DNA from: a virus
Lineage: Duplodnaviria; Heunggongvirae; Uroviricota; Caudoviricetes
Virus record (IMG/VR): IMGVR_UViG_2534681988_000034
Reading direction: 5' to 3' (one strand)
DNA length: 8,554 nucleotides
Position 1 is the first letter of the stretch. Each line of letters begins with the position of its first letter. Both the position numbers and the translations under genes were made by a program. This document shows, piece by piece, positions 1 through 6,832 of the stretch. The notes under the pieces are model-generated. The model was given only the letters and a program-made list of their open reading frames with translations, searched no databases and was not told where the DNA came from.

Positions 1-1164
1 TTACGCCTTCTTTATATCCTCCATAATTCCAGAGTGGGACATATTTGGGACATTATCACCAAAAATGTCGTCTATTTTCCTCGCATGCTCTGTCAAATGA
101 TTAGGCGCAAGGTGAGCATACCTACGAACCATTTCTATGGACTCCCATCCGCCCATTTCCTGAAGCACTGATAATGGGACGCCTGACTGAATCAGCCAGC
201 TTGCCCAGGTGTGTCTGAGGTCATGGAAACGGAAATCTTCAATTCCTGCACGACGACAAGCTGATAGCCATGATGTCTTGCTGTCGATGCGCATCTTCCT
301 GACCGCAGGCGTTGATGTTCCATCTGCTCGCTTAGCCGCCTTGGTATGTACAAACACCCATTTGTGATGCTTGCCTATTTGATCACGCAACACTTTACAG
401 GCGGTATCGTTCAGCGCCACACCAATGGCGCGGTTTGATTTGCTCTCTTCTGGATTCACCCAGGCAACTCGTCGCTGCATGTCGATTTGTTGCCATTCCA
501 GATTTATGATGTTCGACTTTCTCAGACCAGTTGCCAGCGCAAACTTGACGACAGATTTCAGTGGTTCGGGGCACTCATCAATAAGGCGTTTTGCTTCCTC
601 CTTTTCCAGCCATCTGACTCGCTTGTTTCTGACCGCTGGTATCTTGATGACAGGCGCTTTTTCCAGCCACTTCCAGTCGCGTTCTGCAGCACGGAGAATG
701 GCCTTTATCATGGCAAGATGCTTTGCCTTTGTCTGAGTTGATACTGGCTTTGGTTCATAAACAGGCGGTTCTTTACCTTTCCTGATGGCGGCCTGAACTT
801 TCTGTTTCCATATTTCTTTCGTCTTTCTGTTATGCATTCTGCTTACAGCAGAGTAAATCTTTGCCTCCGAGATATCTTTAAGCCTTATACCCTCAAAATG
901 TTCAAGCCAGAACTCAATCCGGCTTTTATCTGAATCGAGAGATTTTTTATCAGCTTTTTCCTCAAGCCATCTTAGGCAGGCCTCTTCAAAAGTGACATCA
1001 GGTAAATCCCCTAGCTTTTCTACTCGCCAGAGTTCTGCTTTTCGCTTGTCGTGCAACTCCTGAGCTTGCCGCTTGTCCTTTGTGCCAAGAGATTCCTTAA
1101 TTCGTTTCCCGCCCGGGAGCGAATACGAGGCATACCATATTTCATTTCTGCGGAAGAGTGACAT
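1..1164 (-). CDS. int: Phage tyrosine integrase (lambdoid prophage Int)
   Basis: 387-aa ORF, complete in window (stop TAA as rc of 1-3; ATG as rc of 1162-1164 preceded by GAGGAAA). C-terminal tyrosine-recombinase signature (HDLRHTWAS ... VRRYAHL). N-terminus MSLFRR..YAS..LP.GKR matches lambdoid prophage integrases of the DLP12/Rac type from memory. Confidence 0.93.
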
Positions 1165-2489: not shown

Positions 2490-2650
2490 ACCGCCTCCCG
2501 TTTATTATTTATCTTCTCAGCCAGCCGCTGTGCTTTCAGTGGATTTCTGATAACAGAAAGGCCGGGAAATACCCAGCCTCGCTTTGTAACGGAGTAGACG
2601 AAAGTGATCGCGCCTACCCGGATATTATCGTGAGGATGCGTCATCGCCAT
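2462..2650 (-). CDS. Small lambda orf60a-like protein
   Basis: 62-aa ORF starting 10 nt inside the 3' end of exo (ATG rc of 2648-2650, GGGGAG upstream) and overlapping the orf63-like start by 28 nt. Same arrangement and size as lambda orf60a. Confidence 0.4.
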
Positions 2651-3321
2651 TGCTCCCCAAATACAAAACCAATTTCAGCCAGTGCCTCGTCCATTTTTTC
2701 GATGAACTCCGGCACCATCTCGTCAAAACTCGCCATGTACTTTTCATTCCGCTCAATCACGACATAATGCAGGCCTTCACGCTTCATGCGCGGGTCATAG
2801 TTGGCAAAGTACCAGGCATCTTTTCGCGTCACCCACATGCTGTACTGCACCTGGGCCATGTAAGCCGATTTTATTGCCTCGAAACCACCGAGCCGGAATT
2901 TCATGAAATCCCGGGAGGTAAACGGGCATTTCAGTTCAAGGCCGTTGCCGTCACTGCATAAACCATCGGGAGAGCAGGCGGTGCGCATACTTTCGTCGCG
3001 ATAGATGATCGGGGATTCAGTAATATTCACGCCGGAAGTGAATTCAAACAGGGTTCTGGCGTCGTTCTCGTACTGTTTTCCCCAGGCCAGCGCCTTAGCA
3101 TTAACTTCCGGAGCCACACCGGTGCAAACCTCAGCCAGCAGGGTGTGGAAGTAGGACATTTTCATGTCAGGCCACTTCTTTCCTGAGCGGGGCTTTGCTA
3201 TCACGTTGTGAACTTCTGAAGCGGTGATGACGCCGAGCCGTAATTTGTGCCATGCATCATCCCCCTGTTCGACAGCTCTCACGTCGATCCCGGTACGCTG
3301 CAGGATAATGTCCGGTATCAT
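2641..3321 (-). CDS. exo: Lambda-type 5'-3' exonuclease (Red alpha)
   Basis: 226-aa ORF, near-identical from memory to lambda Exo (…[63 protein letters not shown]…). Start overlaps the bet stop (ATGA-type coupling) as in lambda. Confidence 0.95.
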
Positions 3322-4103
3322 GCTGCCACCTTCTGCTCAGTGGCTTTCTGTTTCAGGAATCCAAGAGCTTTCACTGCTTCGGCCTGTGTCAGTTCTGACG
3401 ATGCGCGAATGTCGCGGCGAAATATCTGGGAACAGAGCGGCAATAAGTCGTCATCCCATGTTTTATCCAGGGCGATCAGCAGAGTGTTAATCTCCTGCAT
3501 GGTTTCATCGTTAACCGGAGTGATGTCGCGTTCTGGCTGACGTTCTGCAGTGTATGCAGTATTTTCGACAATGCGCTCGGCTTCATCCTTGTCATAGATA
3601 CCAGCAAATCCGAAGGCCAGACGGGCACACTGAATCATGGCTTTATGCCGTAACATCCGTTTGGGATGCGACTGCCACGGCCCCGTGATTTCTCTGCCTT
3701 CGCGGGTTTTGAATGGTTCGCGGCGGCATTCATCCATCCATTCGGTAACGCAGATCGGATGATTACGGTCCTTGCGGTAAATCCGGCATGTACAGGATTC
3801 ATTGTCCTGCTCAAAGTCCATGCCATCAAACTGCTGGTTTTCATTGATGATGCGGGACCAGCCATCAACGCCCACCACCGGAACAATGCCGTTCTGCTTA
3901 TCAGGGAAGGCGTAAATTTCTTTCGTCCACGGATTAAGGCCGTACTGGTTGGCGACGATCAACAATGCGATGAACTGCGCATCGCTGGCATCACCTTTAA
4001 ATGCCGTCTGGCGAAGAGTGGTGATCAGTTCCTGTGGGTCGACAGAATCCATGCCGACACGTTCAGCCAGCTTCCCTGCCAGCGTTGCGAGTGCTGTACT
4101 CAT
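3318..4103 (-). CDS. bet: Single-strand annealing recombinase Bet (Red beta)
   Basis: 261-aa ORF, near-identical from memory to lambda Bet ([66 protein letters not shown]…). Immediately upstream of exo. Confidence 0.95.
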
Positions 4104-4108
4104 CCGTT

Positions 4109-4405
4109 TTATACCTCTGAATCAATATCAACCTGGTGGTGAGCAATGGTTTCAACCATGTACCGGATGTGTTCTGCCATGCGCTCCTGAAACTCAACAT
4201 CGTCATCAAACGCACGGGTAATGGCTTTTTTGCTGGCCCCGTGGCGTTGCAAATGATCGATGCATAGCGATTCAAACAGGTGCTGGGGCAGGCCTTTTTC
4301 CATGTCGTCTGCCAGTTCTGCCTCTTTCTCTTCACGGGCGATCTGCTGGTAGTGACGCGCCCAGCTCTGAGCCTCAAGACGATCCTGAATGTAATAAGCG
4401 TTCAT
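4109..4405 (-). CDS. gam: Gam, host RecBCD inhibitor (short form)
   Basis: 98-aa [63 protein letters not shown]… matches the 98-residue C-terminal (GamS) part of lambda Gam. AGGAG RBS 7 nt upstream of ATG (rc of 4403-4405). Confidence 0.9.
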
Positions 4406-4480: not shown

Positions 4481-4687
4481 TTAGTGATTCAGAGCGTTGC
4501 CGCGTCCGTCGAGAAAAACTTCCACGAGCAAGTCACGGGTATAAGTGCGCTCAATGCCGCGATGCAGATAAAGTCGTCCGCGTAAATTAGCTGATGCAGT
4601 CCAGGTACCATCTTTGCGTTTGACCAGCATTCCTGGCATGACCGCACCGCGATTAACGGTCTGCGTTCCGTAATGTTGATGAACCAT
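4481..4687 (-). CDS. Small pL-operon protein in the kil position (68 aa; 96 aa if started at 4771)
   Basis: ORF directly upstream of gam on the minus strand. Internal ATG (rc of 4685-4687) has a strong AGGAG RBS 5 nt upstream; the longer form from 4771 has only a poorly spaced GAGG. Basic, Arg/Lys-rich small protein; function inferred from position only. Confidence 0.5.
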   Translation of the reverse strand: MVHQHYGTQTVNRGAVMPGMLVKRKDGTWTASANLRGRLYLHRGIERTYTRDLLVEVFLDGRGNALNH

Positions 4688-4964
4688 AAAAACTCCTGCC
4701 CGTAAGCTGGGCTGCTGAACATATAAAGACTTCTGCGCGTATTCAGGCGGTGGATGGCCGCCGGTTGTCATAACTAAGCCGCCTCGTTGAAGCGACTAAG
4801 GTATGAAATGTTGAGTTGATTTCAGCTGGTCACACCGACGTTCACGCGTCCGTTTCATCCCTCGCACTCCCCGAAGCCTGCTGAAATTCAAGCTGCGGAT
4901 CTAAGCGGTCATCGCAACGGTGAATCAGGTGATTGCCGTATCGTTGTGTTGTTGCGATGAACTC

Positions 4965-4993
4965 ATTTAAAACTATAGTTGTTTTATCGTCAA
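4965..4993 (-). promoter_or_regulatory. Putative early leftward promoter pL (-35 TTGACG, 17-bp spacer, -10 TTAAAT)
   Basis: Minus-strand reading: TTGACG (rc of 4988-4993), 17 nt, TTAAAT (rc of 4965-4970); predicted start near 4957. The block is near-identical to the pR block upstream of cro (TTGACT-AAAAACAACCATAGTT-TTAATC). Confidence 0.5.
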
Positions 4994-5040
4994 CAACAAA
5001 AGTTGTTTTGTTGGTTGTTTTAGATATAACTGGTTGTATT
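4971..5040. promoter_or_regulatory. Putative OL operator cluster (repeated GTTGTT/AACAAC half-sites)
   Basis: Perfect 16-bp palindrome AACAACAAAAGTTGTT (4992-5007), inverted repeat GTTGTT-8-AACAAC (4978-4997), palindrome AACTATAGTT (4971-4980), and further GGTTGTTTT / GGTTGTATT copies (5013-5040). The same half-site TGGTTGTT/AACAACCA occurs in the cI-cro intergenic region. Confidence 0.45.
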
Positions 5041-5130: not shown

Positions 5131-5163
5131 GGCAAAAGAAAACCCGGCACGGTGGCCGGGTTT
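5131..5163 (-). terminator. Putative Rho-independent terminator closing the cI operon
   Basis: 9-bp stem AAACCCGGC(5140-5148)/GCCGGGTTT(5155-5163) with 6-nt loop. On the minus strand the hairpin is followed by UUCUUUUG. Lies about 75 nt downstream of the 147-aa gene stop and upstream of OL/pL. Confidence 0.5.
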
Positions 5164-5237: not shown

Positions 5238-5681
5238 TTAAGCACTAAAGAAAAAGTACATTGATAGCTTATAAAGTCCTGTTCCTGCAGCGATGATTGC
5301 TGGAACACCAAGCAATACCGCAAGCTTTGCGTCTGAAATCTTTCTATCGACAGCATCACTTGATGGCTTGTTTGTTAAGGATTCTTTTATAGAGTCCAGA
5401 CGTGCAAGAATAGTTATCATATTTTTGTCGATAGCTTTAACGTCTGTTTTAAGTTCATCAACGTCTCGTTTGATATGAGCAACATCGGACTCCAGTTTTG
5501 CAACTTTTTCAGGCATGTTATCACTCCCAGACCCACTGCTACCACTTGATTGTAGCATGTCCCATCTTTTTCCAGATATACCTGCTAGCTGGGAAGACGC
5601 ACTGGAGTGCAAACAAAATGATTCTGCCGCCTTTGCAATTTTATCATTTAGGTTTGGAGCTTCGTAATAATCGTGTTTCAT
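5238..5681 (-). CDS. Hypothetical coiled-coil protein with C-terminal transmembrane anchor (147 aa), in the rex-equivalent position
   Basis: Minus-strand ORF 12 nt downstream of the 87-aa gene. Ser/Gly-rich linker (SSGSSGSGS), heptad-like coiled-coil segment (KVAKLESDVAHIKRDVDELKTDVKAIDKNMITILARLDSIKESL), and hydrophobic C-terminus (LAVLLGVPAIIAAGTGLYKL). No SD before the first ATG; an internal ATG (rc of 5514-5516) has GGGAG at 7 nt and would give a 92-aa form. Region is AT-rich by eye. Confidence 0.6.
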   Translation of the reverse strand: MKHDYYEAPNLNDKIAKAAESFCLHSSASSQLAGISGKRWDMLQSSGSSGSGSDNMPEKVAKLESDVAHIKRDVDELKTDVKAIDKNMITILARLDSIKESLTNKPSSDAVDRKISDAKLAVLLGVPAIIAAGTGLYKLSMYFFFSA

Positions 5682-5693
5682 AATTAATTACGA

Positions 5694-5957
5694 TTAGTTT
5701 GTTTTAGCTTTGTCATGCTGGTCGCGAATGAAGTCAGCCAATTTAAGCATCAATTCTTCGGGCATTCTAATGGTTGCAATGTTGTACTTTATGTTCTCAA
5801 CATCGTCACTTTCATCAACAGGCCATTCAGTTACATTATGAAAAAAAGAAATTGAACCTAGGCGCTGAGAGCCGTCACCAAACGAAGAGTAGCCAAACGC
5901 GTCGGCGTATGCATCGACACAGTTATTTGATTTTTTAACAAGTGTTTTATTACTCAT
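5694..5957 (-). CDS. Hypothetical small acidic protein (87 aa), first gene of the module downstream of cI
   Basis: Minus-strand ORF 81 nt downstream of the cI stop. ATG (rc of 5955-5957) preceded by AAAGG at 5 nt. Acidic C-terminal half (WPVDESDDVENIKYNIATIRMPEELMLKLADFIRDQHDKAK). AT-rich codon usage unlike the flanking Red and cI genes. No family recognised. Confidence 0.6.
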   Translation of the reverse strand: MSNKTLVKKSNNCVDAYADAFGYSSFGDGSQRLGSISFFHNVTEWPVDESDDVENIKYNIATIRMPEELMLKLADFIRDQHDKAKTN

Positions 5958-6038: not shown

Positions 6039-6728
6039 TTATCCGTGTTTTCTGTACGTCTGCGGCATGCTCCCAATAACCTTACCGAATATGAATACCC
6101 GGTTCATCTCGTCTTTCTCGATAGGGTCCCACGGTGAGTAGCTCTTGTTATCAGAGATAACCAGCAGTTTATCCTTCATCATTTGCAGGCGCTTTACATG
6201 GGCGGTGTCGTCGTACAGAAATGCATAGATACCATCACCGTCGAAAGATTTAACCGTGATATCAACGAACAGCAGATCACCTGGTTCGATCGTTCCTGAC
6301 ATGCTGTCACCACGCACGTTAATGATGCGGATATTTTCTGCCTTCCTACCATCGAACATGTGACGAGCATCGTCAAACGAGTACTCAACCGAGCGTAGAA
6401 CTTCTACAAACTCACGGTTGATGACTCCCGGCCCAGCACTGACTTCTATATCAAGAACGTCAATCTTGAAGTATTTGGAATGGCTGACAGTTGATTGTAT
6501 TGGTTGCACTGTACTGTCTGACATATTTCCAACGCCAGAAGATAACCATTCTGCGCGCACACCCAAAGCGTTCGCGATCTCCACGATTTTAGTTGTTTGA
6601 TTAGCTTTCCCTGTTTCGATTTTCTGAATAGCAGCCTGGCTAACCCCGACCAAATCCCCAAGCGCCTTTTGTGTAAGGCCTCGCGCTAATCTGGCTTCTT
6701 TAAGTCTTTCTGAGAGTGTTGTTTTCAT
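6039..6728 (-). CDS. cI: CI-type prophage repressor (N-terminal XRE-family HTH + C-terminal S24/LexA-like autopeptidase)
   Basis: Start chosen at MKTTLSERLKEARLARGLTQKALGDLVGVSQAAIQKIETGK (ATG rc of 6726-6728), a typical HTH_3 N-terminus; the 22 codons upstream cover the operator region. C-terminal domain has an Ala-Gly cleavage site (VSAGPG), catalytic Ser in GDSM and Lys in VKRL, as in LexA / lambda cI. Divergent from cro. Confidence 0.85.
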   Translation of the reverse strand: MKTTLSERLKEARLARGLTQKALGDLVGVSQAAIQKIETGKANQTTKIVEIANALGVRAEWLSSGVGNMSDSTVQPIQSTVSHSKYFKIDVLDIEVSAGPGVINREFVEVLRSVEYSFDDARHMFDGRKAENIRIINVRGDSMSGTIEPGDLLFVDITVKSFDGDGIYAFLYDDTAHVKRLQMMKDKLLVISDNKSYSPWDPIEKDEMNRVFIFGKVIGSMPQTYRKHG

Positions 6729-6832
6729 AGTCCAAATGTACAACCAAGGTTTTATTCCATCAAACGAAAATGGTTGTTGACTAAAAACAACCATAGTTTT
6801 AATCTTGATTCAAATTAACCACGGAGGTTGTT
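6729..6832. promoter_or_regulatory. OR operator region with divergent promoters pR (plus, for cro) and PRM (minus, for cI)
   Basis: pR: TTGACT (6777-6782), 17-bp spacer, TAATCT (6800-6805), then GGAGG RBS and cro ATG at 6833. Inverted repeat TGGTTGTT(6771-6778)/AACAACCA(6786-6793) overlaps the pR -35 and spacer. PRM (minus): TTTGAT (rc of 6759-6764), 18 nt, TACATT (rc of 6735-6740), ending 6 nt before the cI ATG, implying a leaderless cI mRNA as in lambda. Confidence 0.55.

Follow-up and report, generated by a model that had tools for sequence, protein, structure and literature searches.

The immunity region of phage lambda contains divergent cI and cro genes and three operators spaced about 23-24 base pairs (bp) apart. 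OR1 lies in the spacer and -10 element of the promoter pR, OR2 lies against the pR -35 element and abuts the -35 element of pRM, and OR3 lies inside pRM, whose cI mRNA is leaderless. A second set of operators, at pL, is found beyond the slot occupied by the rexAB moron. The pL and pR promoters of lambda share their -35 element, spacer and operator, and the repressor is a self-cleaving protein of the S24 family. Here we describe a region of this kind in an 8,554-nucleotide stretch of viral DNA (Caudoviricetes; IMG/VR record IMGVR_UViG_2534681988_000034), hereafter called the window. A preliminary description of this DNA had proposed that pL and its operators (OL) lie at 4962-5040 and that a near-identical block is found at pR.

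Two other described systems are close to this locus. The annotated genome of phage 434 has six 14-bp operators of the form ACAA-N6-TTGT, with spacings of 22-23 and 31 bp (OL2 to OL3 is 31 bp). In prophage CP-933P, the repressor and the YdaS protein footprint overlapping repeats across the back-to-back promoters PRM and PR, and the repressor gene is leaderless (PMC8630535). Its upstream promoter PL has -35 and -10 sequences that are the same as in PR, contains three OL sites and was shown to be repressible (PMC8630535). The repeated unit of CP-933P is an 18-bp palindrome, its half-site consensus is GTTTAGTAA, and OR has four copies (PMC8630535).

We conclude, with a probability of about 88%, that 4962-5040 is the OL/pL region and 6740-6805 the OR/pR-pRM region of a DLP12-family lambdoid prophage. 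Comparison of related loci shows that two clusters of predicted operators stand in a fixed geometry over three promoter-like elements and are inherited together with the cI N-terminal domain and cro.

Near-Identical Blocks at pL and pR

The minus strand at 4999..4962 and the plus strand at 6771..6808 read exactly as first given, and their near-identity holds. The best local alignment matches 28 of 30 bases with one 1-base gap; it pairs GTTGTTGACGATAAAACAACTATAGTTTTAA at pL with GTTGTTGACTA-AAAACAACCATAGTTTTAA at pR. Only 21 of 38 positions agree in an ungapped comparison, because the interval from the -35 hexamer to the operator is longer by one base at pL. The alignment has a score of 22, against 8.0 +/- 1.2 (maximum 13) in 2000 shuffles (z about 12), and it is the top non-self match across the whole window. 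Both blocks have the layout of a promoter with an operator, as had been proposed, with a TTGAC(G/T) hexamer, a 17-bp spacer that contains a 14-bp dyad, and a TAnnnT-type -10 element. The distance of about 1.7 kb from pL to cI was also correct; it measures 1735 bp to the cI start codon and 1046 bp to the stop codon. Copies of the half-site ACAAC/GTTGT, which average 0.27 per 100 bp over the window, were counted again. Seven are found in 4943-5037, the number reported near pL, and four are found near pR (at 6740, 6773, 6787, and 6827), where at least three had been reported.

The predicted promoter and operator elements are the following (locus counts refer to the seven homo-immune loci compared below).

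4988..4993, minus strand: pL -35 element, TTGACG; TTGAC(G/T/A) is kept in 7 of 7 loci
4965..4970, minus strand: pL -10 element, TTAAAT; 17-bp spacer; register uncertain by 1-2 nucleotides (nt)
6777..6782, plus strand: pR -35 element, TTGACT; conserved hexamer
6800..6805, plus strand: pR -10 element, TAATCT; 17-bp spacer; TAnnnT is kept in 7 loci
6758..6763, minus strand: pRM -35 element, TTGATG; 17-bp spacer to the -10 element; TTGATG or TTGAAT in 7 loci
6735..6740, minus strand: pRM -10 element, TACATT; TAnnnT at that position in 7 loci
4969..4982, minus strand: OL1, ACAACTATAGTTTT; within the pL spacer, overlaps the -10 element
4993..5006, minus strand: OL2, ACAACTTTTGTTGT; perfect arms with zero mismatches on both strands; abuts the pL -35 element
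5013..5021, minus strand: lone half-site, AAAACAACC; between the OL3 candidate and OL2
5024..5037, minus strand: candidate OL3, ACAACCAGTTATAT; good left half-site, poor right half
6740..6753, plus strand: OR3, ACAACCAAGGTTTT; inside the pRM spacer
6764..6777, plus strand: OR2, ACGAAAATGGTTGT; weak left arm; abuts the pRM -35 element and overlaps the first base of the pR -35 element
6787..6800, plus strand: OR1, ACAACCATAGTTTT; within the pR spacer, overlaps the -10 element
6818..6831, plus strand: possible fourth operator-like site, ACCACGGAGGTTGT; one mismatch; over the cro ribosome-binding site, 31 bp from OR1

A 14-bp Dyad as the Predicted Operator

Direct and inverted repeat searches, together with inspection, point to a 14-bp dyad, ACAAC-YATR-GTTKT, as the unit shared by the two blocks and as the predicted operator. 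A scan of the window for ACAAC-N4-GTTKT with at most one mismatch gave 11 strand-matches against 1.27 expected, a number reached in none of 200 shuffles. All 11 are confined to 4969-5009 or 6740-6831. The arms hardly vary among 18 distinct sites, with A, C, A, A, C at positions 1-5 and G, T, T, G/T, T at positions 10-14, the right arm often being GTTTT instead of GTTGT; positions 6-9 vary, with a Y-A-T-R tendency.

OL appears to contain two full dyads (OL1 and OL2) and one or two lone half-sites, and OR appears to contain three dyads and possibly a fourth. The start-to-start spacing is 24 bp from OL2 to OL1, 24 bp from OR3 to OR2, and 23 bp from OR2 to OR1. The arrangement is that of a lambdoid immunity region. 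A repressor gene encoding helix-turn-helix and S24 domains diverges from cro across a 104-bp gap, in which the three tandem OR dyads (starts 6740, 6764, and 6787), spaced by two helical turns, lie over the predicted back-to-back promoters pR and pRM. The second cluster, formed by OL1, OL2 and perhaps OL3, lies over TTGACG-17-TTAAAT and faces the kil-gam-bet-exo genes.

Inheritance of the Sites With the Repressor DNA-Binding Domain

The cI protein has a Pfam HTH_3 domain at residues 9-62 and a Peptidase_S24 domain at residues 95-218, and the residues needed for self-cleavage are present (Ala98-Gly99, Ser142, and Lys179). The best PDB match of its N-terminal domain is the 434 repressor (phmmer E-value 4.5e-9), to which it aligns without gaps, cI residues 5-68 against 434 residues 2-65, with 24 of 64 identical.

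The predicted operators co-vary with this DNA-binding domain, as seen in natural domain swaps, in five other genera and by contrast with about 25 control loci. The cI of phage 4A7 is identical to that of the window from about residue 45 on and has a different helix-turn-helix. Phage 4A7 also has a different cro and a different OR, the whole of which is replaced by another repeat family. Both flanks of its pL are nearly identical to those of the window, and about 95 bp between them are swapped for a segment of the same length that has another promoter and the other repeat family (CAATAGCAAT-like). The N-terminal domain of Salmonella phage BTP1 is as in 4A7, and so is its repeat family. The cI of E. 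coli KCJ3K291 (locus L009) is about 90% identical to that of the window over residues 1-68 and unrelated afterwards. This locus has different flanks and retains OL1, OL2, OR1, OR2, and OR3.

A cross-genus scan with the cI N-terminal domain, in which one genome per species was used, found five further loci with the recognition helix VSQAAIQKIETGK. They are from Kosakonia, Enterobacter, Klebsiella, Symbiopectobacterium, and Providencia, and with the E. coli locus L009 they make up the relatives compared here (L013-L017, where L016 is Symbiopectobacterium and L017 is Providencia). In all five, dyads lie at -25/-26 and -72/-73 relative to the cI start and flank an ACGAA...GTTKT site, and 0.9-3.3 kb downstream there is a pair of OL sites spaced by 24 bp. 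No such motif cluster was found at about 25 loci with other recognition helices, which served as negative controls. HK022, mEp460, PhiR40_1, and 118970_sal3, whose repressors have the C-terminal domain alone in common with the window cI, were used as controls too and have no cluster.

The cI protein is a mosaic. When the window is compared with L003, L009, and L013-L016, the 434-like N-terminal domain with helix VSQAAIQKIETGK is seen on three unrelated lineages of S24 C-terminal domain, and in 4A7 and BTP1 the C-terminal domain of the window is combined with another N-terminal domain. The two parts meet near residues 45-70 (...TKIVEIANALGV...WLSSG). A more distant repressor, from Pseudoalteromonas arabiensis (L033), has the helix VSQVAVMKIENGQ, intermediate between the window cI and 434, and has ACAACTTTAGTTGT and ACAACATTTGTTAT upstream, at -77 and -33 from the repressor start. 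This suggests that the ACAAC-type operator family extends beyond Enterobacterales.

The preliminary description had held that GGTTGTT/AACAAC half-sites define the operator specificity of this cI. The link to specificity is supported, as a change of the cI N-terminal domain and cro, and only such a change, goes together with other sites at OL and OR (4A7 and BTP1); where the change is confined to the C-terminal domain and flanks, the sites stay. The description of the unit has to be changed to the dyad ACAAC-N4-GTTKT, and two of the seven copies near pL have to be set aside. These two, at 4943-4953, belong to the conserved pL leader. Phage 4A7, which is hetero-immune, still has them, the homo-immune loci L009, L013, and L014 do not, and they are therefore not part of the immunity determinant.

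The half-sites could instead be parts of an outward palindrome, GGTTGTT-N7-AACAACC (6772-6792), that lies over the pR -35 element and serves as a 21-bp operator or as a DNA or RNA hairpin. The arms at pR do make a 9-pair inverted repeat, which a terminator scan detected on both strands, and the palindrome is consistent with the half-sites first described. We nevertheless consider it highly improbable that this is the unit, because the same arms are one base further apart at pL, and OR3 is without a partner arm at the right distance. The register ACAAC-N4-GTTKT is constant over 35 sites in seven loci, the exceptions being the left arm of OR2, which recurs as ACGAA, and a degenerate OL2 arm in L016. 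The 434 repressor, a homologue of cI, recognises a 14-bp dyad with the same polarity. The palindrome is present because the right arm of OR2 faces the left arm of OR1. A 17-bp register, AAAAC-N7-GTTTT, was also tried for the operator unit and rejected. It fits OL1 and OR1, is worse than the 14-bp dyad at OL2, OR2, and OR3, and is without a 434 precedent.

With the 14-bp dyad as the unit, the individual sites can be followed through the relatives. OL2 is kept in other genera at 24 bp from OL1, with a right-arm mismatch in one locus (L016), and an OR2-type site, ACGAA...GTTKT, is found at the same offset in 7 of 7 loci. OR1 of L016 is inverted (AAAACTATAGTTGT), which fits a symmetric dyad read by a dimer. 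In the variant E. coli loci L006-L008, the OL and OR differences fall outside the arms or in the centre. The OL3-candidate half-site ACAACCA is kept upstream of OL2 in 7 of 7 homo-immune loci and is 31 bp from OL2 in five of them; its right half is not conserved, and the assignment of 5024-5037 as OL3 is tentative. The lone half-site at 5013-5021 is found in the window, L009, and L014, is degenerate or absent in L013 and L015-L017, and is probably not essential. The site at 6818-6831 is missing from Symbiopectobacterium L016; five loci have it with one mismatch, and in Providencia L017 it is perfect. It may be a real operator or a by-product of a Shine-Dalgarno GGAGG followed by GTTGT.

One of the E. 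coli variants, L008 (strain 6EVA, NZ_CP138428.1), has at about 3999-4012 a deletion of exactly 24 bp, bounded by the direct repeats that OL2 and OL1 contain. The deletion fuses OL2 with OL1 and removes the pL -35 element, and the locus looks like a natural pL-dead prophage variant.

The likeness of pL and pR could reflect a recent duplication or gene conversion without function, or chance in A/T-rich repetitive sequence; the region is indeed A/T-rich and internally repetitive, and the 24-bp recombinational deletion between OL2 and OL1 is a natural one. However, z is about 12 against shuffles, the arms stay constant across six genera in which the centres and spacers change, and both loci are replaced in concert in hetero-immune phages. 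This explanation is scarcely credible and already fails on comparison.

The protein that reads the sites could also be questioned. The repeats might be mainly sites for Cro, which is of the YdaS family, or for another factor, with cI binding elsewhere or differently and the correlation arising from hitch-hiking within the immunity module. In support of this, a YdaS-family cro stands next to the sites and the N-terminal domain of cI in the window, in L009 and in L013-L016; it did so in every relative in which cro was read. But the 14-bp ACAA...TTGT form matches the closest structural relative of cI and not that of Cro, and the pRM geometry, with OR2 against the -35 element and OR3 in the spacer, is sensible only for a repressor-activator. 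Moreover, all lambdoid switches studied, the YdaS-type one of CP-933P among them, have overlapping footprints of repressor and Cro on the same sites (PMC8630535). We regard this reading as very unlikely, and the YdaS-type Cro is expected to use the same operators.

Promoters, the cI Start and the pL Leader

The pL promoter is directed into kil-gam-bet-exo and the pR promoter into cro. Transcription from pL would start near 4958, at a conserved CAT. The pL -10 element matches by position the TATTAT of pL of 4A7, which is 7 nt ahead of the start of the shared leader. Transcription from pR would start near 6812. The cI mRNA is read as leaderless because ATG A (6728) is found 7 nt past the pRM -10 element and no Shine-Dalgarno sequence precedes the ATG. 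The longest cI open reading frame (ORF), 6039-6794 on the minus strand (251 aa, ATG at 6794), spans OR1-OR3, and the PhiR34_1 record annotates this form. The 229-aa form that starts with MKTT at 6728 is preferred here because it agrees with pRM as well as with the annotation in RefSeq and in IdasGreatGrand.

The sole match of a generic promoter scan was rightward, TTGCGA-16-TATAGT at 4952-4979; it has no gene to serve and was rejected. In the pR start region, TTGATTCAAATTAACCAC (6805-6822, plus strand) resembles the CP-933P YdaT site TTGATT-N6-AATCAA with two mismatches. Matches of the TTGATT-N6-AATCAA type number 14 in the window against 7 expected, which is not significant.

The pL leader (4772-4962, minus strand) covers 190 nt before the kil-family ORF, and its conservation in the hetero-immune phages of this group (4A7 and others) is about 97%. 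Within it lies an arginine-rich mini-ORF of 31 aa (TTG at 4891) or 20 aa (ATG at 4858), with the sequence ...MKRTRERRCDQLKSTQHFIP. No lambda-type N gene or nutL (boxA/boxB) was found after pL, where only the leader and its mini-ORF precede kil, and the leader has no Rfam or PHROG match. An Rfam search over the whole window (E-value up to 1) gave two chance microRNA matches only and no nut or put family. A put-like antiterminator RNA in the leader finds no support; the fold is no more stable than that of shuffled sequence (z of -0.85), and comparison with HK022 pL/put gave 9-mers only.

A Proposed Switch

The following scheme is built by analogy with the lambda, 434 and CP-933P switches, from which we infer binding, cooperativity, pRM activation, looping and the transcription start points. 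A cI dimer would bind the 14-bp dyad through its 434-like helix-turn-helix N-terminal domain. In a lysogen, cI would fill OL1 and OL2 and OR1 and OR2, where spacings of 24 and 23 bp would allow pairwise cooperativity. These sites lie in the spacer between the -35 and -10 elements and against the -35 element, so RNA polymerase would be shut out of pL and pR. The dimer on OR2 would abut the pRM -35 element and be positioned to activate transcription of the leaderless cI mRNA. OR3 lies in the pRM spacer and would turn pRM off at high cI, and Cro would act on the same sites in reverse order. OL and OR are 1.8 kb apart and could pair through looping as in lambda. During the SOS response, RecA-stimulated self-cleavage of cI at Ala98-Gly99, via Ser142 and Lys179, would lift repression and lead to induction.

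Several points weigh against the assignment of these regions. A literature search found no published binding, footprint or transcription-start data for this immunity type, and a search for the window's four full-match operator sequences (two of them also reverse-complemented) found no paper in the library covered. A literature search on the switch of these phages likewise found nothing relevant. The generic promoter scan called none of pL, pR, and pRM, each of which has 8 of 12 matches to consensus where the threshold is 9. The cI and cro genes always co-occur, and the comparison therefore cannot assign the constraint on a base to either protein. OL3 has one conserved half-site only, at a variable distance (-23, -31, -42), and the repetitive AACAAC context permits other registers such as AAAAC-N7-GTTTT.

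Gene Content and Prophage Identity

The window is the early-left and immunity region of a DLP12-family lambdoid prophage, with the gene order int, exo, bet, gam, kil, morons, cI, cro, ydaT-like, and O.

1-1164, minus strand: integrase (ORF and domain matches)
2641-3321, minus strand: exo (ORF and domain matches)
3318-4103, minus strand: bet (ORF and domain matches)
4109-4405, minus strand: gam (ORF and domain matches)
4481-4771, minus strand: Kil-family ORF (ORF and domain matches)
5140..5163, minus strand: intrinsic terminator; 9-bp GC-rich stem, then a T run; the same hairpin is found in phage 4A7
5238-5681 and 5694-5957, minus strand: small ORFs of 147 aa and 87 aa, function unknown (morons)
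6039-6728, minus strand: cI, 229 aa (Pfam HTH_3 and Peptidase_S24); start MKTT at 6728
6833-7063, plus strand: cro, YdaS family, 76 aa (Pfam YdaS_toxin PF15943, 4.1e-17)
7133-7672, plus strand: cII-like gene, YdaT family (Pfam PF06254, 7.4e-30)
7669-8424, plus strand: replication gene O (ORF and domain matches)

Strains of E. coli O26 and O103 contain prophages with DNA identical to the window, and related prophages run on into ren and emrE, like DLP12. A cI at least 99% identical is found in only six deposited phages (PhiR26_1, PhiR34_1, PhiR5_1, PhiR47_2, IdasGreatGrand, and Turner). Of 5426 complete E. coli genomes, 1418 have the OL block and 1521 have the OR block (about 26-28%).

The interval between cI and OL (5238-5957, minus strand) is a variable moron slot at the rexAB position. 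The 87-aa and 147-aa morons of the window match phrog_4231 and phrog_3556, both PHROGs families of unknown function, and PADLOC gave no convincing match for either. The slot is almost empty in PhiR34_1 and E24377A. It holds other genes in 4A7 and IdasGreatGrand, HipA-like genes in PhiR5_1, GevT/GevA in PhiR47_2, and BstA in BTP1. The OL-OR distance spans 1.06-2.4 kb among relatives because the moron cargo differs. The predicted terminator at 5163..5140 (minus strand) is strong and closes the cI-moron transcript just ahead of OL.

Significance

About one quarter of complete E. coli genomes carry this immunity type, for which the analysis provides a promoter map and a usable consensus for the operator, ACAAC-YATR-GTTKT. 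The map aids prophage annotation and corrects the over-long cI start in some records. It also predicts which phages are co-immune and helps interpret the moron and defence slot between cI and OL. The natural series of N-terminal, C-terminal and operator swaps, together with kinship to the solved 434 repressor, makes this a convenient system for the study of how repressor specificity diverges.

A bolder set of ideas is partial cross-recognition with 434, a C5:G10 specificity switch, and a fourth operator at the cro ribosome-binding site. Taken together they are unlikely to hold. Cross-recognition could exist because the 14-bp format and the outer ACAA/TTGT bases are common to both systems. If it did, the 434 repressor or Cro might act on OL2-type sites, or the window cI on 434 operators, and there could be cross-immunity or anti-immunity between families thought to be hetero-immune. 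The C5:G10 pair, with the changes of Gln33 to Lys and Gln29 to Ala, would then be the switch that separates the two specificities.

Comparison With Lambda, CP-933P and 434

The placement of operators over pL, pR, and a leaderless pRM matches lambda, and a second operator set is found at pL, 1-2.4 kb away and past a moron slot (rexAB in lambda). In contrast to lambda, the window operators are 14 bp and not 17 bp and are unrelated in sequence, Cro is of the YdaS family, the gene at the position of cII is of the YdaT family, and there is no N/nut after pL.

The CP-933P/Rac group (PaaR2 or RacR, YdaS, YdaT) is similar in that the window has a YdaS-family Cro followed by a YdaT-family regulator. 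The CP-933P operators are 18-bp GTTTAGTAA-type palindromes as opposed to ACAAC-N4-GTTKT here, and therefore the specificity differs. Furthermore, the window repressor is a classical cI with helix-turn-helix and S24 domains.

Among solved structures, the closest kinship of the repressor is with 434. The cI N-terminal domain is homologous to residues 1-69 of 434 cI, the operators have equal length and the same outer ACAA, and the spacings are similar, including the 31 bp between OL2 and OL3. Of the window sites, OL2 alone fits ACAA-N6-TTGT, and it does so exactly. Position 5 is C in 15 of the 18 sites of the window type, and its dyad partner, position 10, is always G, whereas none of the 12 half-sites of 434 has C at position 5 and the annotated 434 operators do not fit ACAAC-N4-GTTKT. 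The recognition helix reads Q-A-A-I-Q-K here and Q-Q-S-I-E-Q in 434, so that Gln28 is kept, Gln29 is replaced by Ala, and Gln33 is replaced by Lys. In the 434 co-crystal work, Gln28, Gln29, and Gln33 are said to contact DNA, with Gln29 reportedly reading position 2 and Gln33 positions 4-5. Such contacts would agree with a relaxed position 2 and with the C:G that is new at position 5, which is a lead and not a test. OR2 lies in the pR spacer in 434, whereas OR1 does so here, as in lambda. The fold and operator format thus appear to be those of 434, while the predicted specificity differs. Overall, the architecture is the expected one for a lambdoid immunity region and reveals no new mechanism, and its specificity is new and seemingly never described.

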